Assembly: GCF_011745625.1 (NCBI RefSeq) | Contig: NW_027191485.1 | Coordinates: 231,100-251,099, forward strand | DNA from: Cladosporium halotolerans | Lineage: Eukaryota | Direction: 5' to 3' | DNA: 20,000 nucleotides | Shown: piece after piece, positions 2,219-17,539 of the stretch | How positions within the stretch are numbered: position 1 is the stretch's first letter | Layout: each line of letters opens with the position of its first letter | The notes under the pieces: model-generated | Seen by the model: the letters and a program-made list of their open reading frames with translations, nothing else | What the model was told of the DNA's origin: nothing | The model's database searches: none | Program-made: the position numbers and the translations under genes

Positions 2219-3175
2219 TTACTCCCAAGCAAAAGGATCCCACTCGCCCAAATTGCCCTCCTGACCCTCATCCAACTTCTCGATAGCAGCCAAATCCTCC
2301 GCATCAAGCTCCCAGCCGAAAATCCCCATGTTCTCCTTCAACCGCGCCTCCCGATCCGTCTTCGGAATGATGCTCACGCCCATCTGCAAACACCACCGCA
2401 GCACAACCTGCGCCGGCGTCTTGCCCACTTTCTCCGCGATCCGCGCGATCGTCTCGTCGCCCAACCGCTTCCCCTGCGTCAGCGGCGAGTACGCCACCAC
2501 CACGATCCCCTTCTCGCGGCAGTACGCCCGGATCGCCCGCTGCTGGTTCCACGGATGCACCTCGATCTGGTTCACCGCGGGCATTGTGTCGACGCCCGGG
2601 CTCGCGGCCAGCATGTCGAAGTGCTTTGGCGCCCAGTTGCTGACGCCGATCGCGCGCACTTTGCCGGCTTTCTGCGCCTGCTGCAGACCCAGCCATGCGC
2701 CTAGGCGCGCCTCGGGGCCCGGGCGCGGGTTGTGCAGCAGGTAGAGGTCGAAGTACTCCAGTCCTGAGGTCGCGAGACTGCGCTCGAGGCCTGCGAGGGC
2801 GCCCGCCGCGGAGAACGTGGTGTGCCCTGCTTCGCGCGAGTTCAAGGGCCAAGGGCCTTTGGTGCACATCGCCTCGAAGTCGGCGGGCATGTCCGGGCGC
2901 GAGAAGTCAGTTTCCCACAGCTTGGAGGTCACGAAGATGTCCTCGCGCGAGACTTCGGGGTGCTGCGCCAGGAACTTGGCCACGGCCGACCCGGTCTCGC
3001 GCTCGTTGAAGTAGATCTGCGCGGTGTCGATGTGGCGGTAGCCGGCGGAGAGGGCGGCGATGACGGAGGCCTCGCAGTTGGAGGACATGACGCCGAGGCC
3101 GAGTAGGGGGATGCTGCCCTGCCCGGAGGGCAGAGGGAATTTGGAGTCCAGGGTGAGAGAGGTGGTGGCGGACAT
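2219..3175 (-). CDS. Aldo-keto reductase (318 aa, intronless)
   Basis: GYRHIDTAQIYFNE, FVTSKLW, DLYLLHNP (Asp-Tyr-Lys-His tetrad), GKVRAIGVSNW, NQIEVHPW, AYSPL, TPAQVVLRW, IIPK. Confidence 0.95.
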   Translation of the reverse strand: MSATTSLTLDSKFPLPSGQGSIPLLGLGVMSSNCEASVIAALSAGYRHIDTAQIYFNERETGSAVAKFLAQHPEVSREDIFVTSKLWETDFSRPDMPADFEAMCTKGPWPLNSREAGHTTFSAAGALAGLERSLATSGLEYFDLYLLHNPRPGPEARLGAWLGLQQAQKAGKVRAIGVSNWAPKHFDMLAASPGVDTMPAVNQIEVHPWNQQRAIRAYCREKGIVVVAYSPLTQGKRLGDETIARIAEKVGKTPAQVVLRWCLQMGVSIIPKTDREARLKENMGIFGWELDAEDLAAIEKLDEGQEGNLGEWDPFAWE

Positions 3176-3237
3176 GGTGGGTGGTTGTATGGGATGGAGG
3201 TGAGGGATATTAGAGAGGGTTCAGGGGGGCAGCGAGG

Positions 3238-3243
3238 TTTATA
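3238..3243 (-). promoter_or_regulatory. Putative TATA box of the AKR gene
   Basis: TATAAA on the minus strand about 63 nt upstream of the ATG at 3175, followed by a pyrimidine-rich leader. Confidence 0.45.
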
Positions 3244-3559
3244 TTGTGTTCACACAGGTCCTGACTAACGGCCGTATGAGGATGTCATATGTGAAAGGTC
3301 TGGCCGGGCACTTGACTATTGTTCCCACGTCGCTCAACAAAAGGCGATGTCCCAGTCAGTCCACCGTGGAGTCTTTCGCATTTTAGCGTCTTGCCCCACA
3401 GCCACACCCACGTGGAGACATCGGGACACGCACGCCCCGCGCTTCGACCTTCCAGGCATTTGCTTAGTCTGGAAATTTGGGCATGTCACTGGAGAAAAAT
3501 CTCGTGGCTGTTCGATTGACGAGATCTAATGTCGCCTAACGTTTATGTGAGTCATTAAC

Positions 3560-4848
3560 TCAAGCCTCATCCGCCAATGCCTCTCTCCTCGACCTCGACC
3601 TGGGGTCAAAGTAAGGCTTCTCTCCCAGTGAACACACGCGATCACCCGCTCTCGCCGCCCCATAGTCATACGTCGCACAGTGGCCGGTGGAACGGTTGTC
3701 CCAGATGGCCAGATCGTTCTTCCGCCACTTGAAGCGGACTTGCGCGTCGTGGTTTTGGGTCAAAAGCTGCTTTTTGTCAGCCGGGTCCTAGTTGTGGGAG
3801 GAGCCTATTTCTACTCACGTTGAAGAGATATTGCAGCAGCAAGTCTGATTCGTCTTTCGTGACGCCAAGAATACGACGCGTGAAGCCCTTGTTGACGAAG
3901 ACGCTCTTCCAGCCCGTCACGGCTACACGTAGATGTCAGTACTATCTCCACTGTAGTGGATGCTGCTATACTCACGGTTGGTGCGAATTACAGGATGGAC
4001 AGCTTCGAGAGCAGAGCCGTGGTTCAATGGTGATCCTCTAGGTGTGGTTCGTAGAGGGTTACCAAGTCTCTCCGCTTCTTCGTGGAAGAACTTCGCATCG
4101 TGTCTGGCGCTGAGAGTCTCCAGGTAAGCGGCCATCGACGGCGACAGACGGTCGTAGACTTCATAGCCAGATGCCCAGAGCTGCGTTCGAGATATATCAG
4201 CAACAGCAACCCATATTTTTATACGGTTTCCCAGCCTGACTTACAGTATCACCACCGGTCTTGGGAAGAGTGTGAATCTTCAGCATCGCATAGTCCGAGG
4301 TCACGTTCTCGAACGTGATGTCGGAGTGCCATCCCACGCTGGCATATCGGCTTGTATCGCTGAGTTGGTGTGTAAGTCCGCCGCCCTTCTTTTGCTTCTC
4401 GGAACTGATCACGCTGATCTGGTCGCCCAGTTCGCTGCCTTCCTCCGTGAGAGGATGCACGTGGAGGGTGGATGAGTCCGGCTAGTATCCAACATGTCAG
4501 CAGGGTATCTTTCTAGACGATGGCCGGATATCGTACAGAGCCGGCTTGCTTGGTAATCTTCTCCATCAACTCGCGCATCTGCACGGGAGTCACATCTTGG
4601 TCGCGGAGGAACACAACGCCACGCTGTGAGATGGTGATGGCCAAATCGCGGATAAGGCTTTCATTGTTTGATGCTAAAATGTCGGCAATCTGAAGGCCCT
4701 CAAATTCGGTGCCGATGACAGGCGTCAGGTCGCTTTGGGTGTAGCAGTCTAGCAAGCCAGAGTACGCCAGTGGCTTGTCAAGCTTCGTGCGGGCGACTTC
4801 AAAGTCGACCCCGACAGGACCCTCGCTGACAGTAGTTGGAACAGGCAT
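3560..4848 (-). CDS. Fe(II)/2-oxoglutarate-dependent sulfonate/taurine dioxygenase (TauD/Jlp1-like), 354 aa; exons 4848-4537, 4481-4245, 4180-3976, 3922-3819, 3766-3560
   Basis: DLTPVIGTEF, QRGVVFLRDQ, WHSDITFE (HxD), TGGDTLWASGYEVYDRLS, HPVIRTNPVTGWKSVFVN, WDNRSTGH (distal His). Four canonical introns of 52-64 nt give a continuous 1065-nt frame. Confidence 0.93.
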
Positions 4849-5344
4849 GATTTGTGCTGCGAGTCTCCAACAATATTTTGAAATGATCGCCGCGTACGTG
4901 TCTAGGAGAAAGAGGAATACTCTTCGGCTGACAGCAGCGATTTCGCAGCCACGCGGCCCAAGCCACGTTGGGCCTCGGGTTACATTTGCGAGTCATTACT
5001 ATCACCACGTGTAACAGACCACGACTTTGCATCAGGTAGCGAGAACTCTGATCCTCTGTTACAATGGTCGTGAGGGGTCGCTCGGTGGTTGCTCCTTGGC
5101 TAGACAGCCACGTCCCATCGGGCCCCACCCGAATGTGGGGTCAATGCCGAAGGATAGCCATCACGACATCCACGCTACGTGGATTAGCCACGCAGCAAGC
5201 GAGTATTCGCAATAATTCGCCCGGATGAGATCAGTCACGGGATGCTTGAGTGGTTGGCGGACAATATCAACCACGAACCGAGGCCGAGCTGGCAAATTGT
5301 TCAGGCACGGCCTGGAAGCGGGACGAAAGATGTTTGTGAAGTAA

Positions 5345-5350
5345 TATAAG
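5345..5350 (+). promoter_or_regulatory. Possible TATA element of the MFS transporter gene
   Basis: AATATAAG is the most TATA-like sequence I saw in the 1.05-kb divergent intergenic region; it would imply a ~500-nt 5' leader. Confidence 0.3.
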
Positions 5351-5541
5351 GACGGCAGCGGATCAGCGCTATTTTGCCTCTGTCGGACTCACTTTTCTTC
5401 TCGGATGACAAACAGTCCACCGCCGATCTGGAACTCTGTAGGCACGCTGGGCGCTTTGCTAGGGTAATAGCAGCCAATCCCGGTGCCAATTTCGGAGTGA
5501 ACGCCCTCCTACTGCTTCTCAGCTCTCGGTATCTTGGAAAT

Positions 5542-5875
5542 TTAGTAGCGTGCTACCATCGCCTCTAAATCTTCAAGACTGGAGATTCCACTGAGAACTT
5601 GCATCCTACGAATCTCGATACCCAGGAAGCTTGGTGGCGTGCTACCATCGTCTCTGGACATTCAAGGACTGGGTTTTCCACTGAGAGTTTGCATCCCACA
5701 AGTCGCGGGAAGGCGGCCACTTAATAACGTGCTACCATCGCCCCTGAACATTGAGATAGGATTCCCTCTGAGAGCTTGATCCTGCGAGCTTCTGGATTGA
5801 CGCTCGCTTATAGCGTGCTACCATCGCCTCCCGACCCTCGAAATTGGATTTCTCCACGGAGAGCTTGCGTCTTTG
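5542..5875 (+). repeat. Four diverged tandem units (period 89, 90, 86 bp) with invariant core CGTGCTACCATCG
   Basis: Core at 5549-5561, 5638-5650, 5728-5740 and 5814-5826. Second block (CCACTGAGA, CCACTGAGA, CCTCTGAGA, CCACGGAGA) ends at 5596, 5686, 5773 and 5862. Confidence 0.95.
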
Positions 5876-5903
5876 ACTGGCCACGGATTCGACGTTCTTC
5901 ATC

Positions 5904-7861
5904 ATGGATGCACCCGCTCCGGCACCAAAAGCCGAGCTCGTGCGGACCACGAGTATTGACAAAGACATTGCTGGTGAGGTCGGCCGCGATCACATCCCGC
6001 TCAAGCCCCACGAGTCATACGAAGGCGCTCACCGCTGGGATCCCGAGGCAACATGGACTCCGAAGGAAGAGGCACGCGTCGTCCTCAAGACTGACATCCG
6101 TTTGATGACGTGGCTTTGCCTCATGTTCTTTGGTTTGCAGCTGGACCGCGGGAATCTTAGCAACGCGCTCACTGACAACCTCCTTGACGACCTCGCCTTG
6201 GACACCAACGACTATAACAATGGCACTACAATCCAACTTTTGGCCTTCCTCAGCGCTGAGTTCCCCGTACAATTATTGATAAAGCGGTTCGGTTTCAAGC
6301 AAGTTCTCCCCTTGCTCATGGTGATGTGGTCCACGGTCTCTTGGGCGCAAGCCTTCATGACTGGACGTACTGGCTTTTATATCACCCGCGCCCTGATCGG
6401 AGCATGCGAGGGCGGCTTCATACCGGGTACCATCTTGTTTGCCACCTACTTCTACACATCGAAAGAGCTGTCGGTCCGGTTGGCTGCATTTTGGTCGACT
6501 CTGAACATTGCCCGCGTCATCTCTTCGCTGCTTGCTGCCGGTATCCTTGAGATGCGGGGCATTGCCGGAAGACCGGGATGGTTCTGGTTGTTCCTTGTAA
6601 GTGATACAGGCGCAGTGCCCTATGTCGTTGGCTAATATCTCTTAGCTCGAGGGTCTCTTGACTTTCCTCATTGGCGCCATCAGCTACATCTACCTGCCGT
6701 ATAGCCCGACACGCACGAAGGGCGTGCTCTGGCGGAGGTCCTGGTACAACGAGGACGAAGAAGTGATCATGGTCAACCGCATCCTGCGAGACGACCCTGC
6801 GAAGGGCATCACTGCCTTGAAAGAGCCGGCTACATTCCGGGACGTTATAAACACTTGGAAAGACCCCTCCATGTGGGGCCTGTATTTCGTCGGTCTGGTG
6901 GCATACATCCCGGCTTCGCCAGTGCAAGCGTATTTGTCGCTCACGCTCAAGCGAATCGGCTTCAGCACTTTCGACAGTAATATGCTGTCGATCCCCTCGG
7001 CCGTGCTGCAGATCATCCTCATGCTGGCCCTAGCGTTCAGCAGCAACTACTTCATGGAGCGGACATTCCACTGCATTATTGGCGAGTTCTGGTGTCTGCC
7101 GCTTCTTATTGCGCTGCTCAAGCTTCCGGAGGGAGGACATGAATGGGGCCGCTTCACCATCACGACAATGATCTCAGGATGTGAGTGAAGCTCCCTTCTT
7201 GAGAGTGTTCTTGTAGCTAACGAATTGAACGCAGACCCGTATTTCCACCCCATCGTCTCCGCCTGGATCAGCGAGAATAGCTTCGACGTTAAGAAACGCG
7301 CCATAACCGCCGCGACGTACAACGTGATCGTTCAAGTGGGCTCAGTGATCTCGTCTCGTAAGTTCCATCTCATCAAAATTTCTTTCTCCATCGCGCCTGA
7401 CGCAGCTTTCCCGAAAGTTGGTGGTTGTGACTCTCTCGGGGCAGAATCCGCTTCTCAGTGGCATAAAAGCGATGATAGCACGCCATTTTGCCTTCTGAGC
7501 TCTGAGATGCCCAGAAGGGTCAAGACAGGCGTGGGCCACCTTGAATAGACACGGTGTCCTAACTACAATCTGATATGCCATATCTTTTCATAATGGCCAA
7601 TGATTGCTGACAATGTTTTCAGAGCTCTACCGCAAAGACGATCAGCCCTATTACTACCGCGGCAACAAAATCCTCATCTCGATCTGTGCGCTGTCGCTGG
7701 CGACTTTTGTCGCGCAGAGGGAGTACCTGCGCTGGCTTAACAGGCGGAAAGCGAAGGCCTGGGAAGCCATGAGCAGCGTGGACAAGGTCGCCTACCAAGC
7801 GGATCAGGAGGCAAGGGAAAAGGACGGCAACAAGAGGCTGGATTTCCGGTTCCAGTACTGA
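5904..7861 (+). CDS. MFS transporter, Dal5/allantoate permease (ACS) family, Soa1/AstA-like sulfonate/sulfate transporter, 529 aa; exons 5904-6596, 6646-7180, 7235-7357, 7623-7861
   Basis: CLMFFGLQLDRGNLSNALTDN, RALIGACEGGFIPG, GWFWLFLLEGLLT, NRILRDDPAKG, YPYFHP, LYRKDDQPYYYRGN, NKRLDFRFQY. Introns of 49, 54 and 265 nt give a 1590-nt frame. Divergent from the TauD-like gene. Substrate is inferred. Confidence 0.9.
7452..7485 (-). repeat. Inverted, internally shortened copy of the upstream repeat unit inside transporter intron 3
   Basis: Reverse complement reads TGGCGTGCTATCATCGC-ttttatg-CCACTGAGAA, matching core block 1 at 12/13 and block 2 of unit 1 at 10/10. Confidence 0.8.
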
Positions 7862-7873
7862 GCGCATCGGCAT

Positions 7874-8911
7874 TCACACGCTGGTCTCATAGATTTCCCG
7901 CAGCAAGATATTGAACTTCGTCTCGACGTTGAGGAGTGTATCCGGAGTCAATTGTCTTAGGTATCTTTCGCGAGCGAGATTTCCCCAGGCGTGGTAGGCG
8001 AGCTGATTTGGAAACATGGCGCCCTGCCACTGGGATATGTTACTCTTAATCTCAGTCAACTCTGACGCGTCAACGGACAGAGGCCGGTGCATCGACTCTA
8101 TGTGCTCTCTACTCCATGTGGGCCAGAAAAACGCCGCAGGCGACAGCGTACAGATGGTGTCCGGGAACTCGTGAGCCAGCTGGGCGGGCACCATGACGGA
8201 ATGATGGTTCCACATTTGCGGCCTGTCGTCGAAGCTCTTCCGGTATGCCTCGAGCCATCTGGAAATGAAAGTACTCGCAGGCCGCGCCACGATCACGGCA
8301 TTGCCAAGACCGCTGCGGCTGCCGCCTTCGTATCCCATGAGAACATCCCGAGATGAGGTGAGCAGGGGAGAGAAAGACTGCAGGGCGTAGACGTCCGTGT
8401 CAAGGTAAATCCCGCCTCTCGAGTGCAGGACCTCAAGGCGTAGAATGTCCGTCTGGTGAGGTAGCCGAAGCTTGTGGATGACACCATCGGTGGTGATGAG
8501 CGTTTCACGTCGAGTGTGAATGACAAGCTCTACCCGGTGCTGGATGAGTTGCCACCATTCGTTCTCCTCATTCAACGCATACGTATGCACCTTGATACGC
8601 TCGGGTTGTATTCGTAGCAAAGCGGCTTTGATCGCAAGATACTGGTAGAATTCCAGCTCGGCCCCTCTGTCATGTTCCGCGATAAGAACAAAGTGTACCA
8701 CAAAAGGTATTTGTGACCACTTGTTCGTATTATTACCGCCTTGTTGGCAAGTGATTTCCTCAGGCGTATCAACAAAATCCCAGTCCAGGTACTCATGCTC
8801 AAGTCGAAGGATTTCGGTGGCGTGGTGGGAGCGCCGAATGAGAAGCGAGTATACCCCGAGGAACACGCATATTGCGGAAGCGAGTACGAAAACCTGCAGC
8901 CTCAGCCGCAT
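7874..8911 (-). CDS. Glycosyltransferase family 32 (DXD sugar-binding motif), type II membrane protein, 345 aa, intronless
   Basis: N-terminal hydrophobic anchor, IPFVVHFV, HQTDILRLEVLHSRGGIYLDTDVY, GLGNAVIVARPASTFISRW, WNHHSVMVP. Confidence 0.88.
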   Translation of the reverse strand: MRLRLQVFVLASAICVFLGVYSLLIRRSHHATEILRLEHEYLDWDFVDTPEEITCQQGGNNTNKWSQIPFVVHFVLIAEHDRGAELEFYQYLAIKAALLRIQPERIKVHTYALNEENEWWQLIQHRVELVIHTRRETLITTDGVIHKLRLPHQTDILRLEVLHSRGGIYLDTDVYALQSFSPLLTSSRDVLMGYEGGSRSGLGNAVIVARPASTFISRWLEAYRKSFDDRPQMWNHHSVMVPAQLAHEFPDTICTLSPAAFFWPTWSREHIESMHRPLSVDASELTEIKSNISQWQGAMFPNQLAYHAWGNLARERYLRQLTPDTLLNVETKFNILLREIYETSV

Positions 8912-10994: not shown

Positions 10995-12810
10995 ATGGCC
11001 TCCGAAATGGTGAAGAGCGAGGACGACCGTCCGCCGTCCATTTTGTACGGGCCGACTACACCTGTGCCGTTGCAGATGCCATTCGGCGACCTACTGGATT
11101 ATCATGTCGAAGTTCGCGGAGACCGACCTGCAGTGATCTCCCACCCGCAAGGTCTGACGCTCTCATGGCGGCAGCTGAGCGACAGAAGTATCAAGATGGC
11201 AAGCGCGCTGGCGAAAGATGGCGTTGGCAAGGGTAGCTTGGTCGCTATTTCGCTGGGAAGCAGGGCGGAATACTTCGAGACCTTTTTCGCATGCGCCAGG
11301 CTCGGGGCGGCGCTGGTGATGCTCAATTATGCCTACGCAGAATCAGAGATGCTGGCTCTGTTGAAGGTCGTCTGTGAGTAGGAACCTCTTTGCGAATGCG
11401 ACAGCTAGAACAATGGCTAACAGCGCAATAGCTCCCAAGGTCATGGTGGCATCGCCTGGCTTCACGTTCTACGACAACACGAAAGTCCTACCCAAGATCG
11501 CCGACCAGGTCCCCTCGATTGTCAAATTTGTGATTATGGACGACCTCGAAGGCAAATACAAACTCACCGCTCCACTCGCGCGACACATTCATTACGAGGA
11601 CTACTTGAGACCATACTCGCCGCTCGACAAGGCCGCATTACCAAAGGTCAAAGTCTCACCGCACGACATGGTCAACGTCCAATTCACCTCTGGCAGCACC
11701 GGCCTTCCGAAACCTGTCGCACTTTCGCACTACAACATCATGAACTGTGGGCGGAACATCTGGCAGCAAACAAGAATGACAGCCGATGACAAGATCTGTC
11801 TCCCTGTACCCCTCTTCCACTCTTTTGGCATGATCGTGGGCATCAGCAGTAGCACCGTCGCAGGATCTGCGCTCGTCTTGCCGCACGAGATATTCAACGT
11901 GAAGAAGACATTGGAGTGCATTCAAAGGTACAAGTGCACTGCCATATACGGCGTCCCGACCATGTTCATCACCGAAATGGCGGACAAGACGTTCAAGGAT
12001 ACCGATCGCTCGACCATCAAATTTGGCATTATAGCAGGAGCTGCCATGCCGCCCGAGCTGCTCAAGCGCATCACTTCTGCTTTTCCGTTACCTCGACTAT
12101 ACACTTGCTGGGGCATGACTGAGCTCAGCTCGTTCGCAACTATGATGCACGAGACGGACACTTTCGAGAAACGCACCACTACCGCAGGCAGGCTCTTCCC
12201 CAATTTTGTCGCGAAGGTTGTACAGCCCAATACCGGGAAGGTCGTGCCTTGGGGCGAGAAGGGAGAATTCGTCGTCAGTGGATACGGACAGATGTCTGAA
12301 TACCTTCACCATAAGAAGAAGACAGATGAAGCATTGCGAAAACACGAAGAGGATTTGCTGCCCGGCGGCGTCGGCGCGCTCGACGACGGCGGTCTGAGAA
12401 CATGGATGCACACCGGTGACGAGGGATTTTTCGATGCAGAGGGCTACTTCATCATCTCCGGCCGCATCAAGGACTTGGTGATCCGTGGCGGTGAAAACAT
12501 TTCGCCCATGGAGATCGAAGACCGCTTGATCGAGCACGAAGCAATCATACAGGCCCAGATCATTGGCGTGCCTGACGATCGATACGGTGAAGAGCTCGGC
12601 GCTTTCCTCGAGCTAAAGGAAGGCAGTTCTCGTCCCAGCGACGACGAGCTGCGGGCCTTCGTGAGGGAAAAATTGGCGAGATTCAAAGCGCCACGATACC
12701 TCTGGTGGCTTGGTGATAAGGGCGGGAAAGTCCCCAATGAATGGCCAAAGACAGCGAGCGGCAAGGTCTCGAAGCCAGACTTGAGGAAACTGCTCAAGAG
12801 TCTGCTCTAG
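10995..12810 (+). CDS. Acyl-CoA synthetase (AMP-forming, ANL superfamily, ACSF2-like), 585 aa; exons 10995-11373, 11432-12810
   Basis: VQFTSGSTGLPK, VPLFHSFG, YGVPTMF, WGMTE, WMHTGD, GRIKDLVIRGGENISPMEIE, GVPDDRYGEE, PKTASGK; intron 11374-11431. Confidence 0.94.
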
Positions 12811-13334
12811 ATAAGCGCAACAGACGAAATCTGCGATATACACTTGTTTCCCGATCCGTCTTGACATGTACACGCCAACAAAGCCACACCGCCGGGAACA
12901 ATGTGGTCGAACGCCCCTTGCCCAACATGTCTACAAGCTCAGATCGCGGGTCCCTGCCGTTGAAGCGGCTATCGTTTCCATACCTGTCAGAAGGGTTCAT
13001 GCGGGGTTGAAAGCATATTTCCCCCATGAGGGTTACAACTTACCTCTGTCCCTCCGCAGATCGTCGGGGATAACCATCGTTTACCGAGCCCATGGCTCTG
13101 CATGGCCACTCCCTCTGACCGAACGCCACTTACGTTCGCCACGAGGATGAACTGGCCCGACAGCACGTTCAGAGCTAGTTATTCCCAAGTTTCGACGCCA
13201 GTCCGAGACCGGCACAGCGAAAGCTCACCTCGGTGCAAGCTGAGGGAAAAGTCGCCTGTAGTACACTAACACTCGCCTCGTTGTGAGCGCTTCACACAGT
13301 CGTTCGCTGTCCACAGTATTGCGCCATCTTCATC

Positions 13335-15280
13335 ATGCCTACCGGTGCCCAAATCATTGCTCAGGCGCTGCACGACCTCGGTGTTCAGGTCATCTTTGGC
13401 GTGCCTGGACTCCCTGTCACCGATATTGGACAGCAAGGTCTGAATCTCGGCATTCGATTCATCAGCTTTCGCAATGAACAGGCAGCTGCCTACGCCGCGA
13501 CGGCATATGGCTATCTCACTGGAAAGCCAGGCGTCTGCATTTCTGTGGGTGGACCGGGCGTCTTCCATGTAATGGCTGGTGTATGTTGGATCCTGACAAG
13601 CTTTCTTTACGGGTGTATCAGTAATGACGTTTAAAAGATCCCTCATGCCGCAGCCAATTCATGGCCACTCTTGGTGTTGAGCGGCGCCACCGAGACACAC
13701 AATGCCGGCAAGGACGCTTTCCAAGACGTCGACGCCATCTCACTCCTGACACCACATGCGAAACTGGCCGTCCGACCTCCGTCGGCAGACATGATCCCCA
13801 AATTTATCAAGGATGCATACCGTGCTGCATACTTCGGCCGACCCGGGCCGGCATATGTTGACCTGCCCGCAAACTTGATCCTGGGGTCATACGACATTGG
13901 CAAGCCGAAGCTGTTACGCTTGACTGAAGCTCCAATATCGGTACCGCCGGAACGCAAATTGATCGATGTCGCAAACACAATCAGACTGGCTAGATCCCCC
14001 CTTGTTGTATTGGGCAAGGGAGCGGCATACGCGAGGGCTGAGGGTCCGATCAGGGCACTCATCGAGCGGTAAGTCTCACCCGGACTAGTGTGGACAAAGT
14101 ACATTTCTAACGGGAGCATTAGCACACATATTCCTTTCGTACCTACACCAATGGGCAAGGGAATCGTCGCCGACTCCAGCCCATACAATTACTCCGCCGC
14201 CCGATCCACAGCTTTGAAAGAAGCTGACGTCGTTCTCGTCCTGGGAGCCAAGCTGAATTGGATTTTATCATTCGGCCTTCCACCCAAATGGAACGCCAAA
14301 GCAAAGATCATTCAAGTAGACATATCCGCTGAAGAGCTGGGCAAGAACGGTGGAGACCCCACATTGAGTCTTCTGGGTGATGTTGGAGCTACCGTCGAGC
14401 AGCTTTTGTCCCATCTAGGCAATTGGCAATGGCAAGGCGAGAAAACCCAATTCCTGCGCAACCTTCAAGTCGCTCAGTCCAAGAACACTCAAAAGGCAGC
14501 CAAAAAGGCAGCCGTCGTGAAGTCACCCATGATGTTCGAACAAGCCTTTGACATCATCAAAAAGACACTGGATGGTCTTTCGAGCCCTTCGGACGGCGAC
14601 ATCGTCTACGTGTCCGAAGGTGCGAACGCAATGGATATCTCCCGCTCGATCTTCACTATGGAACACCCCAGAATACGTCTGGATGCCGGTACATATGCCA
14701 CGATGGGCGTCGGTCTCGGCTATGCGGTCGCCGCGTATGCCGCATACAACTTTCCTCAACCAGAAGGATCCGCTGGCACACACAGCAAAAAGAAGATCGT
14801 GTGCATCGAAGGCGACAGCGCTTTCGGCTTCTCAGGCATGGAAGTTGAGACGATGGCGCGCTTCAATATGGACGTGCTGATCTTCGTCATGAACAACAAC
14901 GGCTTGTACCGTGGCGACACCGATTCCGCTGAGACTTACCGTTCGAGGCGAGAGAACACTATCGCCGGCACGACGACCACTGGCAATGGTCTTACTGCGT
15001 GGTCACTCGGCTATCAGACAAACTACCACAAGATCGCTGAGATGGCGGGTGGTATCGGAATCGAAGCCCGCACGCCCGAGGAGCTGAAGAAAGCGACGGA
15101 AGCGGGCTTCAAGGCGAGGGTACCCGTGGTCGTGAATGTGATTATCAACTCGAATAGCGACCTCCCCATGGTATGTTGCTTTCGCTCAAGACGTAGTTTG
15201 ACGTACAAATTGCTGACTGTGAACAGGACTTCTCTTGGCTGGACATGATACCACCTGACCAGGCTAAGCCTAAGCTGTGA
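13335..15280 (+). CDS. TPP-dependent 2-hydroxyacyl-CoA lyase (HACL1/oxalyl-CoA decarboxylase family), C-terminal PKL, 592 aa; exons 13335-13580, 13638-14068, 14123-15170, 15227-15280
   Basis: [70 protein letters not shown] motif [15 protein letters not shown]...NNNG. The spliced C-terminus is [17 protein letters not shown]. Confidence 0.92.
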
Positions 15281-15613
15281 TGCGGCATGTCGTAGATATA
15301 CCCACGTAATGAGTGTACATATCAGAACACTTCAGTATCGGAATCTCCCTATCAGCGATGTCAATCGTGACTACCTCGGCATCCGACAAGGAAGCCACAT
15401 TCCCCTCACTCAAACCTGAATGTTGGACAATTTTGTGAGACGGCGGTCCAAGCAAGTTAGCACGACTGAGATCACTTAGAGGTATCATTGAGATTGTGTG
15501 AAATCGTAATATAAAGTAATCATAATTCTTGTGGATTCGGCTAATATTGACGGAATATAAGTGAACATGATAACTTGATGAACCAACTCCTTCGTCAACT
15601 ACCAATCAACCAA

Positions 15614-17539
15614 TTACAGACGGGCGTTCATGCTGCCAGCAGAGTGCTTGTTCTGAGCAATGATGAACTCAGCCGCCTTCTCAGCAATACCATAAGCAGG
15701 CATTTGAGTGTGACCGCTCATGAGCAGCGGCATAATACTGCAGTCGACGACGCGTAGGCCCTTGACGCCACGAACATTGAGGTACTTGTCGACGACGGCC
15801 ATAGGGTCATCGTCCTGTCCGAGCTTGCAGGTTCCGCCAGGGTGGTATGAGGTCGAAGCGTACTTCTGCACGTGGTCGTGCCAATCCGCGTTGGTCTTGT
15901 TCTTGTGGTGCGTCGCACCAGGCGGCCAGGCGCCGGATATGACGTCTTTGGTGCCGAGACCCTCCATCACGACTTCGTTGCCGAAGCGCACGCCCTCGGA
16001 CAGCATGAGCAAATCGCGCTTGTCGGAGAGGTAGCGTGGGTCGGCGAATGGAGGCTCGAAGGGATCCTTGCTCTTGATGGTTACGTAGCCACGAGAGCGC
16101 TGACCGCAGAGGAAGACGCACATCGAGAGAGCGAACTGGCCGGGGCCCGGATTGTCAGTGTACTCACCAGGCCCACCGTAGCAGACGGTATTGAAAAACT
16201 CGCAGTTGGGCTGAGATTCAGTGAGGCCCATGGGGTCACGGCCAGGCTCACGCTCGAGGTTGCGCCACTCAGGCACCTCCTTGTCAAGGCGGTCGTTCAG
16301 GCGAGCGAAACCGAAAGCGCCGAACGGGAAGGTGGCGAGCCAGCCCGTCCTCTTCTCTTGCCACTCTTTGAGTCCATTTTCCCAAGCGTTCGGATCATGA
16401 TTGACACGAGGGTCGTCGGTAAGACCCGGTTTGTTGACCTCGTAATAGGTGAAAATGAGCTGGTGGTCCTGCAAATTCTTGCCGACACCAGGAAGGTCGA
16501 CCTGAACTGGAATACCCAGCTTCTCGAGATCCTCGCGAGGGCCAATTCCGGAGCGAAGGAGCATGGAGGGAGAGTTGTAGGTGCCGCCCGCAAGCAAGAC
16601 TTCCTTCGAAGCTGACGCGGTGTATCTCTTGCCGCTGTTATCAAGGAACTCGACGCCGGTGGCGCGAAGGTCTCCGTTCGCGTCACGCTCAAGGACCACC
16701 TTGTCGACGGTCATATCGCACATAATGGTGACGTTCTTCCTTTCTTGGCTCTTGGTAACATAATCGGCAGCCGTTGTCCTGGATCCTTTGTATGTACTTC
16801 TCATGGCGTGGCCACAGCCGTTGGCTGTCTCGCCAGTGCTGAACATATCCGGCCTATATGGAAGGCCCTTGGACTGGAAAGACTCAAAGAAGCAGTCGGC
16901 GATCGGGTAGACAGGCGCAGGCTCGATGCTAAGTGGGCCGTTGGTGCCATGAGCAGATGGGTCGTGAGGGAACCAATCTTGGGCGTGAAATGTCTCCGCC
17001 TGAAGTGAATAATGTCAGAATGTGTAACCACAAGCCTTGGCCAGCTACGCGTGAACGTACCTTCCTCATTGCGCGAAACATCTCCTCGCCACTCCACTCC
17101 GGGAAACCCCAGTCATCGTAGTCTTGCTTGACACCGCGAATGCAAATTGTGCCATTGGAACCACTGCTGCCACCTAGGAATCGCCCGCGCGGAAGTCGAC
17201 ATTCCTTGCCCTTCAAACCGGGCTGAGGCGGGGAGACAATGTTCCAATCAAGAGGTCCGAAGTGGCACTTTGTCCAACTTTCCGCATGTCAGTACGAGGA
17301 AAACTGCTGGAGGTCAGAGTGATACGTACGCTCCGGGCATTTGGATGTTATCCACATTTGCGCTCGCAGAGCCTGCTTCGAGCAAAAGGATCGTCGCATT
17401 TGGATCCTCTGAAAGACGACCCGCAACCACAGGGCCGCAGGTTCCGCCACTATCGCGCAGGGTCAGTGTCTGAAGGCCATCGTTCACCTGCTTGATTTCC
17501 CTACCCAGCAATAATGTAGTCAAATGTCTTCGCCGCCAT
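15614..17539 (-). CDS. GMC (glucose-methanol-choline) FAD oxidoreductase, C-terminal ARL (PTS1), 585 aa; exons 17539-17505, 17449-17330, 17277-17061, 16999-15614
   Basis: FDYIIAGGGTCG (FAD-binding), PRGRFLGGSSGSNG, GTYNSPSMLLRSGIG, GVGKNLQDH, catalytic pair SYHPGGTC / SGHTQMP, GVKGLRVVD. No signal peptide seen. Confidence 0.93.

Follow-up and report, generated by a model that had tools for sequence, protein, structure and literature searches.

The window is the whole stretch of 20 kb of Cladosporium halotolerans DNA that was analysed. On its forward strand lies a gene for a Dal5-type MFS transporter, with four exons (Table 1). Exon 1 has an MFS_1 match, and the named proteins nearest to that exon are from Cladosporium and 80-82% identical. 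Some sources call relatives YIL166C-like. The four exons are collinear and match orthologs from end to end. The splice joints 7180>7235 and 7357>7623 are present in RNA contigs; the second is a GT..AG joint, which means that intron 3, on which a preliminary description of this DNA had centred, is real.

Genes around the transporter

A gene for a TauD/TfdA-family dioxygenase is divergent from the transporter. Its TauD Pfam match (E 1.2e-4, 22.5 bits) is under the curated score of 27. The two genes have an upstream region of 1056 nt in common, and their adjacency is kept in 20 of 31 orthologous loci. With high confidence, the locus is a conserved sulfonate-utilisation gene pair, in which a TauD-like dioxygenase is divergent from a Soa1/Dal5-type transporter. 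Upstream of the transporter, at a distance of 4 kb, is a gene for a fungal transcription factor. Annotations of some relatives fuse the transporter with a Zn-cluster factor into one protein, which implies that both genes are adjacent there.

On its other side, the transporter gene meets a convergent glycosyltransferase gene. Only 12 nt separate the two stop codons, which means that the transcripts of both genes must overlap. In RNA run X16, a contig of 1781 nt covers 7208-8000 and ~988 nt further. It runs from 7208 to a point ~77 nt ahead of the start codon of the glycosyltransferase, with intron 3 unspliced inside it. The contig looks like glycosyltransferase mRNA that is antisense to the transporter gene from exon 4 down to exon 3, intron 3 included; the RNA contigs themselves carry no strand, level or transcript-end information. 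Such an mRNA would carry the inverted copy described below in sense orientation. Intron 3 is spliced in two RNA runs. The unspliced signal from it can be explained by an antisense glycosyltransferase transcript, and apparent intron retention is inseparable from such a transcript.

Table 1. Features of the locus, in positions of the window.
Feature	Position	Strand	Basis or remark
TauD/TfdA-family dioxygenase, divergent, first exon	4516..4848	-	TauD Pfam match
Possible fifth unit, decayed	~5440-5523	+	judged by eye only
Four tandem units of 87-90 nt, 5' UTR	5524-5612, 5613-5702, 5703-5789, 5790-5878	+	repeat search, alignments
Block A core, units 1-4	5548-5562, 5637-5651, 5727-5741, 5813-5827	+	15-mer search
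Block B core, units 1-4	5586-5597, 5676-5687, 5763-5774, 5852-5863	+	12-mer search, alignment
Host gene, Dal5-type MFS transporter, 529 aa	5904..7861	+	splice sites and open frame
Host exons	5904-6596, 6646-7180, 7235-7357, 7623-7861	+	introns of 49, 54 and 265 nt
Convergent glycosyltransferase gene (ORF 7874-8911), with RNA contig to 7208	7208..8911	-	Gly_transf_sug match
Intron 3, 265 nt, ~200 nt longer than in any ortholog	7358..7622	+	splice sites, GT..AG joint 7357>7623
Inverted unit (7452-7485 and weaker flanking homology)	7441..7516	-	motif, profile, alignment
Candidate intron-encoded box C/D snoRNA, 124 nt	7458..7581	+	C/D scan, fold z -3.56
Terminal stem of the candidate, 8 bp	7458-7465 with 7574-7581	+	abuts box D, 3 nt from box C
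Candidate box C, GCGAUGA	7469-7475	+	one mismatch to RUGAUGA (U2>C), GA dinucleotides retained
Candidate D', CUGA	7495-7498	+	C/D scan
Candidate box D, CUGA	7570-7573	+	C/D scan
Inner foldback, DNA palindrome	7474..7540	both	folding

A repeat family in the leader and in intron 3

The 5' UTR of the transporter gene holds four tandem units of a repeat family of ~89 nt. Tandem Repeats Finder does not report this array, because the units are only 67-76% alike; a separate repeat search does. Every unit contains two conserved blocks, A and B, which in units 1-4 are spaced 25, 26, 23 and 26 nt apart. Block A has 13 consecutive invariant columns; elsewhere, the units are 60% alike. An invariant run of at least 13 columns was reached by 23 of 100000 column permutations, which makes it very unlikely that block A would look like this without constraint.

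The array is transcribed: contigs 5233-5691 and 5803-5963 place the units inside the pre-mRNA, and come from an RNA run with spliced forms of the transporter gene. They suggest that transcription begins at 5233 or further upstream. A TATA-like element common to the orthologs sits upstream of the array. The leader is without ATG for 499 nt (ATG-free stretch 5408-5903). No ATG-free run in the window, whichever the strand, is longer, and 5 of 5000 shuffles reached this length.

An aptamer or riboswitch-like leader was considered and dropped. The leader folds no better than random (z -0.5), the alignment fold of the units comes to -2.88 kcal/mol with 1 compensatory pair only, and a search of Rfam at E<=10 over 4500-8500 returns nothing meaningful. 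A tRNA-like reading of block A was also dropped, as ARAGORN finds 0 tRNA in the window.

Intron 3 contains another copy of the repeat. Positions 7452-7461 read TTCTCAGTGG, which is the exact complement of CCACTGAGAA in unit 1 (5588-5597). Positions 7469-7485 read GCGATGATAGCACGCCA, with two differences from the complement of unit 2 (5635-5651). In a sense-RNA duplex of 7469-7485 with unit 2, there is one A.C and one terminal G.U, just as the preliminary description had it. Its main observation, an antisense copy of both blocks in intron 3, is likewise borne out.

A profile made from the four leader units alone finds 7433-7486 on the minus strand at E 6e-4 (nhmmer), with the next match at E 2.1. 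In the 20 kb this is the only extra copy beyond the leader units. Searching both strands of the 20 kb for the block A 15-mer with at most 3 mismatches gives 6 matches: the leader copies with 0-1 mismatch, the inverted intron copy with 1, and a 3-mismatch match at 1790. No shuffle out of 200 reached that number. For the block B 12-mer with at most 2 mismatches there are 7 matches in the 20 kb, including the four leader copies and 7452-7463 (minus); 1 shuffle in 200 did as well. The intron copy retains 12 of the 13 invariant block A columns and all 10 of the 10 block B positions of unit 1. The 34-nt stretch 7452-7485 is a fifth, inverted member of the transporter's own 5' UTR repeat family.

When the whole of intron 3 is aligned locally with the leader, without a motif model, the score of 27 is not significant (shuffle maximum 31), because the spacer deletion breaks the alignment. 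This spacer was first put at 8 nt, down from ~26. The shrinkage is real, but the spacer measures 7 nt (7462-7468). It was also held that mainly the conserved blocks had been kept. They are indeed the best kept part, but the homology spans ~7441-7516, roughly at unit-to-unit level; the flanks of the copy have decayed to the level found between units. Arm-to-arm distances from the leader units to the intron copy are 1641-1896 nt, in agreement with the ~1.6-1.9 kb given before. A recombinational inversion around exons 1-3 had been suggested as well. Against this stands one DNA contig of a related strain that is collinear over 5000-8000, a weak argument as contigs drop rare forms.

Of the orthologs, 28 cover the intron 3 junction. 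The intron is absent in 8 of these and 57-116 nt long in the other 20. The repeat motif is found in 0 of 31 orthologous loci by motif scan, and the promoters of eight orthologs, when read, have no motif resembling it. From these comparisons, the four-unit array and the ~200 extra nt of intron 3 can with high confidence be taken as recent, lineage-specific additions. With the element missing from all 31 loci compared, conservation does not reach beyond the lineage. As no ortholog has the array and the intron copy, there is no comparative support for pairing between the two.

Some matches in the orthologs were rejected. Block A matches with 3 mismatches in loci L005, L007 and L008 lie downstream of the transporter, in the loop of an unrelated perfect 11-bp hairpin, and their number is within chance expectation. 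A 16-nt match between intron 3 and the leaders of L030 and L031 (E 0.009-0.036) rests on a low-complexity CTGAG/CTCAG core.

The foldback and its candidate snoRNA

A box C/D snoRNA is ~70-130 nt in size. Box C (RUGAUGA) is near its 5' end and box D (CUGA) near its 3' end, and a terminal stem joins the two. The guide consists of at least 10 nt upstream of D or D' that are complementary to rRNA or snRNA, and the modified base is the one opposite the fifth nucleotide. These are stable RNAs of ~120 nt, bound by fibrillarin, Nop56, Nop58 and Snu13.

The inverted copy of intron 3 is held in a ~200-nt nested foldback, which also holds what looks like a complete box C/D snoRNA arrangement of the intron-encoded kind. 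In this candidate, the 17-nt block of the copy makes up box C and the first nine guide bases. The 10-nt block makes up the 5' flank and the start of the terminal stem. The flank, 7452-7457, is outside the snoRNA-like body, so snoRNA function alone does not explain why it was retained.

The stretch 7458-7581 is the sole match of the C/D scan with a stem of at least 8 in the window. The same scan has 0 matches in 348 kb (both strands) of 31 related loci. It does not belong to a curated box C/D family of Rfam. The best match there is DdR13, which involves the guide and box D only and scores 13 bits against a gathering score of 65 (E 1.8); besides this weak match, Rfam at E<=10 has nothing meaningful over 7430-7610. 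Comparing the putative guides, D' at 7476-7494 and D at 7551-7569, with the window gives no notable target except unit 2 (16/19, in a non-canonical register). In a strain that is ~2% diverged, 12 inserted nt interrupt the putative D guide. For strain X6, none of the differences listed is inside 7445-7532.

The inner foldback pairs 7479-7484 of the 17-nt block with 7528-7533. It folds at -26.5 kcal/mol on the plus strand (z -2.4) and at -32.4 kcal/mol on the minus strand (z -4.6), and a G.U asymmetry of 3 vs 1 towards the minus strand involves too few pairs to decide the matter. Because it folds on both strands, and slightly better on minus, it looks like a DNA palindrome and not like a strand-specific RNA. 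A MITE or foldback transposon would show terminal inverted repeats, a target-site duplication and dispersed copies; the foldback has only an 8-bp outer inverted repeat, no target-site duplication by eye, and no other copies in the 20 kb.

Like fungal intron-encoded box C/D snoRNAs, the candidate is on the sense strand of an intron that is longer than that of orthologs. It also shares with them a box C-like heptamer, CUGA boxes, an 8-bp terminal stem and a length of ~124 nt. Unlike them, it is outside the Rfam families and has a conditionally used transporter as its host. A housekeeping snoRNA would be oddly placed in such a conditionally expressed gene. A further difference is that the 5' UTR of the host carries four antisense copies of the snoRNA 5' end. 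A non-exhaustive search of the literature on RNA pairing, and for the guide sequence, found no host-leader antisense copies of a snoRNA; the guide string itself returned unrelated primers only.

Possible roles of the inverted copy

Pairing between leader and intron needs the inverted orientation, and the RNA contigs place the leader array and intron 3 within one pre-mRNA. The computed duplexes have energies of -37.2 to -47.3 kcal/mol; the background, over 513 windows, is -28.8 +/- 5.7. Unit 2 alone beats all of these 513 windows.

The alignment contains no compensatory changes between the units and the intron copy. All four units keep a C opposite A7475, where C>U would complete the helix, and A7475 is essential in box C. 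The caveat that the sense RNA has A.C pairs there rather than G.U, raised at the outset, thus stands. Units 3 and 4 have disruptive changes in block B. Of the kinds of difference at paired positions, two are wobble-compatible and three disruptive, which is the chance expectation. In addition, the local hairpin already holds 7479-7484, in competition with the leader. Leader-intron pairing is possible and its use hypothetical, and nothing shows selection for it.

The best reading of the data, and a tentative one, is that leader and intron RNA pair in a way that masks box C, and not that they form a selector switch as in Dscam. The leader units would be multi-copy antisense partners of the 5' end of the intronic RNA. 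They are made 1.6-1.9 kb ahead of intron 3, and so could seize box C and the 5' strand of the stem before box D and the 3' strand exist. Alternatively, they could bind the intron after its release. Pairing with the leader would compete with K-turn and snoRNP assembly and with the local hairpin, and the fate of intron 3 and its RNA would then depend on the leader of the host mRNA.

It is conceivable, if unlikely, that the 5' UTR acts as a four-copy antisense trap for the 5' end (box C, 5' stem strand and flank) of a C/D-box RNA from the gene's own intron, in mutual regulation that closes a feedback loop between host and snoRNA. Such a trap might mask snoRNP assembly in cis, or the intron RNA might bind the four leader sites in trans, and for this too the chances look low. 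That the loop was born by inverted duplication within a single gene is likewise unlikely.

A partial parallel to leader-intron pairing is the TPP riboswitch intron of Neurospora NCU01977, for which the available part of the source describes long-distance base pairing and proposes an effect on splicing (PMC3597705). That gene is also of a fungal MFS-type transporter, with distant RNA segments that are proposed to pair (PMC3597705). Going by the same part of the source, the cases differ in that there is no TPP aptamer or other Rfam family here, and that the partners are an array and an inverted copy.

Blocks A and B could also work at the level of DNA, as protein binding sites for a sulfur regulator or for the neighbouring fungal-type transcription factor, multiplied by duplication. 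Complementarity would then be a mere consequence of the inverted orientation. This is unlikely. It does agree with the conservation of primary sequence and not of complementarity, and a site in double-stranded DNA is functional in either orientation. The transcription factor gene 4 kb upstream, and the Zn-cluster factor adjacent in some relatives, point the same way. In the available text of PMC8550094, the CYS-3 half-site is RYCAT, its consensus ATGRYRYCAT or ATBRCGCCATC, and TauD-type and MFS-transporter genes are among those that CYS-3 binds and regulates in Neurospora. As far as that text goes, the dioxygenase-transporter pair resembles these genes (PMC8550094). The single core difference, C in the units and T in the intron copy, sits at the degenerate Y of the half-site as given there. 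The intron copy agrees with the longer CYS-3/MetR motif ATBRCGCCATC of that text at 9 of 11 positions (PMC8550094). Block A agrees with ATGRYRYCAT, in the form given there, at 8 of 10, but there are ~93 matches of that or better quality in the 20 kb, which is chance level. Moreover, all five copies are in DNA that is transcribed, and the conserved TATA-like element and an E-box region shared by orthologs are upstream of them. The spacing from A to B is 23-26 nt in the units versus 7 nt in the intron, and no similar motif turns up in the eight ortholog promoters read or the 31 loci scanned.

TR34 of cyp51A is a tandem duplication of regulatory DNA in a fungal promoter. The array is like it in having short tandem copies with a conserved core upstream of a coding region. 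It is different in that it is older, with units 67-76% alike, in that it lies in a transcribed leader, and in having an inverted member in an intron.

The relationship might have no function at all, and be a relic of local inverted duplication and minisatellite-like expansion, which is quite unlikely. The intron copy would then persist as part of the snoRNA or hairpin, and the leader core for an unrelated reason or through short-tract gene conversion, a combination with equally slim prospects. The array and the intron insertion are young features of a single lineage, the foldback is strand-symmetric like a product of replication or repair, covariation is absent, and the intron of a related strain tolerates indels. 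All of this suits a relic. A 13-column invariant run in units otherwise 60% alike does not, being very unlikely without constraint, and neither does the retention of both blocks in the inverted copy, including the 5' flank outside the snoRNA-like body.

Very unlikely is a sense RNA motif in two convergent mRNAs, where one RNA-binding factor has four sites in a 5' UTR and one in a 3' UTR. There is little reason to expect that such a factor coordinates the transporter with the glycosyltransferase, in whose long 3' UTR the inverted copy would lie. In support, the 1781-nt contig spans unspliced intron 3 down to 7208, the closeness of the stop codons makes the transcripts overlap, 3' UTR elements there have no unconstrained room except in introns, and of the two strands the minus strand gives the more stable hairpin. 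On the other side, that strandless contig could be pre-mRNA or DNA. An invariant single-stranded protein site of 13-16 nt would be unusually long, the units have no conserved fold (-2.9 kcal/mol; leader z -0.5), and the plus-strand C/D layout would be a coincidence.

In a model from plants, hairpin small-RNA genes arise by inverted duplication of their target. The foldback shares with such genes its arms, antisense and sense to sequence in a potential target RNA, and differs in residing in an intron of the target gene itself. A young small-RNA locus, where an inverted duplicate of a leader unit is diced into small RNAs against the four leader sites, is nevertheless highly unlikely here, and dicing from the pre-mRNA hairpin or from a sense/antisense overlap is hardly to be expected. 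The hairpin, of ~55-67 nt, with one arm antisense and one sense to a unit, would suit this, as would four target-like sites with an invariant core of 13-16 nt, the likely convergent overlapping transcription and the plant precedent. The hairpin is short and imperfect, however, and block A is mostly outside the plus-strand stem.

Dscam exon 6 of arthropods has an intronic docking site that is complementary to upstream selector copies in one pre-mRNA. Such a switch serves clustered, mutually exclusive exons with a selector ahead of each one, and its complementarity is maintained through conservation and compensatory change. The likeness to this locus is a single intronic site with several complementary upstream copies in the same pre-mRNA. 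The differences are that there are no mutually exclusive exons here, that the copies are in the 5' UTR, and that this is a single-lineage element without compensatory change. What remains of the docking-site and selector pairing first proposed is the one pre-mRNA and the computable duplexes (-37 to -47 kcal/mol). That four leader copies compete for the intronic site, and that the choice sets the splicing of intron 3, is extremely unlikely: the gene offers no alternative exons or outcomes, covariation is absent, the local hairpin competes, intron 3 is spliced in two RNA runs with the antisense transcript able to explain unspliced signal, and selectors nearly identical in the paired core would carry no information.

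Even if leader and intron do not interact, this is a clean lineage-specific expansion of a 5' UTR by ~350 nt and of an intron by ~200 nt, within a conserved sulfonate-utilisation cluster. It likely also includes a new intronic snoRNA, for now a candidate. The convergent genes, 12 nt apart, look like a case of one gene's intron doubling as the other's 3' UTR.

If the leader does act on the intronic element, the locus would be a compact and tractable case of an mRNA leader that controls the RNA of its own intron, or the reverse. Given the recent origin, related fungi without the arrangement would be natural controls. It would also show how a regulator and its target can arise as a pair by inverted duplication within one gene.

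Genomic setting of the host gene

The window is fungal in character, with a G+C content of about 54% and introns of about 50 nt. The gene that carries the inverted copy encodes a transporter whose first exon matches the MFS_1 family. On that exon, its nearest named proteins are from Cladosporium, at 80-82% identity. Several sources label its relatives "YIL166C-like" or "nicotinamide mononucleotide permease-related". An excerpt of PMC5303821 identifies YIL166C as the yeast sulfonate/sulfate transporter Soa1.

Comparison was made with 31 orthologous loci (66-91% identity), all from one metagenome scan with exon 2. A TauD-like gene adjoins the transporter in 20 of these; its match in the window (E 1.2e-4, 22.5 bits) is below the curated cut-off because a single exon was scanned. 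The glycosyltransferase is adjacent in 4 loci, and the aldo/keto reductase in 7. Judged by gene content, the transporter and its TauD-like surroundings are a conserved sulfonate-utilisation neighbourhood, which fits the sulfur sources mentioned in the preliminary description.

Further along, at 10995-16846, is a second gene group that may be a small metabolic cluster. In one locus (L005, 5411-5503, +) an intron-bearing tRNA gene lies between transporter and glycosyltransferase (Rfam tRNA, 49 bits; missed by ARAGORN). Another, L008, has similar sequence, and the window is without a tRNA at that place.

Features of the window, with putative RNA elements named by resemblance
Feature	Position	Strand	Remark
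Aldo/keto reductase	2222-3175	-	with the neighbourhood 3200-8911 (TauD-like gene, transporter, glycosyltransferase)
TauD/TfdA dioxygenase family gene, first exon	4516-4848	-	upstream of transporter, divergent
Leader units 1-4 (the array)	5524-5612, 5613-5702, 5703-5789, 5790-5878	+
Block A (15 nt), 0-1 mismatch	5548, 5637, 5727, 5813	+	inverted at 7469-7483 (-)
Block B	5586, 5676, 5763, 5852		inverted at 7452-7463
Transporter gene, 529 aa	5904-6596, 6646-7180, 7235-7357, 7623-7861	+	four exons; host of inverted copy
Terminal stem, 8 bp	7458-7465 with 7574-7581	+	outer foldback layer
Box C-like GCGAUGA	7469-7475	+	three bases inside 5' arm
Internal CUGA	7495-7498	+	outer foldback layer
Box D CUGA	7570-7573	+	abuts 3' arm
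Glycosyltransferase ORF	7874-8911	-	downstream of transporter, convergent
AMP-binding enzyme	10995-12807	+	second gene group
Thiamine-pyrophosphate enzyme	14088-15245	+	second gene group
GMC oxidoreductase	15617-16846	-	second gene group

The repeat family and its inverted copy

Overall similarity among the four leader units is 67-76%. In block A, 13 columns in a row are invariant, a run reached in 23 of 100000 column permutations; the remaining columns are 60% alike pairwise. Elsewhere in the 20 kb, block A occurs at up to three mismatches only at 1790 (3 mismatches), and six matches were reached in 0 of 200 shuffles. A profile made from the leader units alone finds 7433-7486 (-) at E 6e-4, and nothing further below E 2.

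The blocks and the inverted copy at 7452-7485 read as first described. The intronic spacer is indeed shorter than in the units, at 7 nt rather than 8, compared to 23-26 nt. It had also been proposed that mainly the conserved blocks were kept. Weaker homology in fact extends to both sides, roughly 7441-7516, so the copy is an entire unit in shortened form, which dates back to when the units diverged, and no recent patch. It retains 12 of the 13 invariant block A columns, and it matches block B of unit 1 at 10 of 10. Together with the invariant run, this means that a common constraint appears to act on all five copies. Such a constraint, given that one copy is inverted, could arise in three ways: from complementarity through RNA pairing, from an orientation-blind protein that binds double-stranded DNA, or from two sense transcripts.

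None of the 31 loci has block A at up to 2 mismatches; 20 of them extend 500 nt or more upstream from the first exon. Block B with 1 mismatch occurs in one locus, far downstream of the transporter. The exon 3/exon 4 junction is covered in 28 loci: 8 lack an intron there, and 20 have one of 57-116 nt, versus 265 nt in the window. The start codons of the TauD-like gene and the transporter are about 700 nt apart in L005 and L008 versus 1056 nt here, an excess of about four units. In three loci (L005 5222-5246, L007 1595-1619, L008 4711-4735) the transporter gene is followed by a conserved hairpin with a perfect 11-bp stem and a loop of 3 nt; its resemblance to block A (12 of 15 positions) is probably chance.

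For a strain that differs by about 2% (X6), a DNA contig is collinear over 5000-8000, with 68 substitutions in 3001 nt. Among the differences listed, no indel falls in the array or in 7452-7485. The indels that are listed (1 nt deleted at 7533, 12 nt inserted after 7560 and 1 nt inserted after 7591) are in the 3' half of the snoRNA-like element described below or just past it, the 12-nt one within the putative D guide.

Transcription of leader and intron

Statements on coverage refer to the contigs listed for each RNA run. Spliced transporter forms are seen in X4: there is a joint 7180>7235, one contig of exon 1 stops precisely at 6596, and at 7357 a loose end runs on into exon 4 sequence. Contigs from this same run cover 5233-5691 and 5803-5963 in the array region, which bears out the idea that both pairing partners are in the pre-mRNA. 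The stretch 5408-5903 is the longest without ATG on either strand of the window, where about 7.9 would be expected; 5 of 5000 shuffles lack ATG over it, or 184 of 5000 once repeats are allowed for. Two elements are shared with L005, L008 and L010, where they precede the start codon by about 100-160 nt: a TATA-like one, AATATAAGG (5343-5351), and a short one upstream. Given the contigs, the ATG-free run and the position of the TATA-like element, the array is inside the transporter 5' UTR. Intron 3 is spliced out in X15 (joint 7357>7623) and, from the loose end, in X4.

With a transcription start near 5233, which the RNA contig suggests, the leader would include upstream ATGs at 5242 and 5330 (region 5242-5349) and at 5405. 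The ATG at 5405 begins an upstream ORF of 20 codons (region 5405-5467), which is closed ahead of the ATG-free array. The upstream region shared with the TauD-like gene contains a CACGTG E-box (5006-5011), present too in L005, L008 and L010. These three loci also have a palindromic element of the form GGCGAGTATTCGCCAT, whose CGCCAT core resembles the published CYS-3 motif; the window version (5196-5225) is changed, to …TTCGCAAT / TTCGCCCGG. The block B tail UGCAUCC (units 1 and 2; 5683-5696) is complementary to GGAUGCA starting at the start-codon G (5906-5919), but seven bases are too short a match to mean much. The first 48 nt of intron 3 (7358-7405), a multiple of three, resemble a complete short intron (GTAAGT … CTGAC … CAG). 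Read unspliced, intron 3 keeps the frame open to 7548, and the last 79 residues would become a 64-residue tail.

The stop codons of transporter and glycosyltransferase are 12 nt apart (7862-7873), versus about 115-1270 nt in relatives, so each mRNA must end within the other gene. In X16, a single 1781-nt contig begins about 77 nt ahead of the start codon of the glycosyltransferase and reaches 7208, across transporter exon 4, unspliced intron 3 and exon 3. Transporter exons 1-2 are without cover among the contigs listed for that run. Contigs are strandless, but this one looks like the mRNA of the glycosyltransferase, its 3' UTR being about 660 nt long, and the inverted copy would be in sense orientation within it. 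The unspliced intron 3 contigs in X4 (7414-7644) and X15 (7333-7447), equally strandless, therefore need not represent intron retention.

Foldback, pairing and other readings

The additional 200 nt or so of intron 3 are a nested foldback. On the transporter sense strand its outer layer resembles a box C/D snoRNA in layout, which makes it a candidate snoRNA. The window was scanned for a box C that retains both GA dinucleotides and has at most 1 mismatch, followed 50-170 nt downstream by CUGA, the two being flanked by a stem. This gives one match with a stem of at least 8 bp, the candidate, and 3 with at least 6; window shuffles give 0.17 of the former per 40 kb. The 31 loci (348 kb, both strands) have 29 matches at stem 6 or more, 3 at 7 or more, and none at 8 or more. 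The chance expectation for the 265-nt intron is below about 0.001, in a test devised after the boxes were seen. A 131-nt stretch folds with z -3.56.

Two further scan matches, 13364-13465 (-) with a 7-bp stem and 13172-13333 (-) with a 6-bp stem, coincide with long ORFs on the minus strand and are probably false positives. Rfam gives a sole hint, to the part of Dictyostelium DdR13 that comprises guide and box D (17 of 20 positions, 13 bits, E 1.8); membership was rejected, with a score far under the gathering score.

Read as a snoRNA, the 17-nt docking block (7469-7485) would be box C plus the first nine guide bases, and the 10-nt block (7452-7461) six flanking bases plus the first four of the terminal stem. 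The inner layer is a hairpin, which spans 7479-7533 on the plus strand and can be lengthened on the minus strand to 7474-7540. In it, GGCGUG (7528-7533), which resembles a short sense copy, is paired with part of the docking block. The hairpin folds at -26.5 kcal/mol on the plus strand (z -2.4) and -32.4 on the minus strand (z -4.6), as expected of a DNA palindrome.

Among the readings, RNA pairing between leader and intron is tentatively placed first. It needs the inverted orientation; the invariant core is 13-16 nt, and the conserved blocks take in flank that a snoRNA alone would not preserve. RNAduplex gives -38.5, -47.3, -41.2 and -37.2 kcal/mol for units 1-4 against 7440-7500. By energy a duplex is possible, but only unit 2 is beyond the background of 513 windows (-28.8 +/- 5.7, best -46.3). 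Against pairing, the local hairpin competes, and the A.C mismatch raised as a caveat is fixed: all four units have C opposite A7475. This A is the last base of box C and thus fixed if the box is functional; C>U in the units would close the helix there, and none of the four has made that change. Wobble is kept by A>G (units 2-4, block B end) and C>U (unit 2, block A end), while pairs are lost through G>A in block A of unit 3, and in block B through A>U (unit 3) and U>G (unit 4). This is a chance ratio, and the four-unit comparison shows no signature of selection for pairing, such as the compensatory change that had been looked to. Alignment and leader folding found no fold of the units' own.

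A module of DNA sites, bound by a protein on double-stranded DNA irrespective of orientation, is possible but doubtful. What is conserved is the sequence itself, not complementarity, and the sole core difference sits at a degenerate position of the CYS-3 half-site consensus, as excerpted from PMC8550094. Yet the CYS-3 match is at chance level, with about 93 equal-quality sites in 20 kb, and every copy is in transcribed DNA, downstream of the conserved promoter elements. That the copy is a relic is unlikely. It is improbable that the blocks are a sense UTR motif, read in the transporter 5' UTR and the neighbour's 3' UTR, and quite improbable that they form a small-RNA hairpin. The docking-site/selector switch as first written hardly survives: the gene lacks alternative exons, and its "selectors" all have the same core.

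It is well supported that intron 3 holds an inverted, lineage-specific paralog of the leader units, that this paralog lies in a foldback of C/D-like layout, and that it is transcribed together with the array and overlaps an antisense RNA. For leader-intron pairing, the predicted function is that the upstream antisense leader units would mask box C and the 5' stem of the intronic snoRNA-like RNA.
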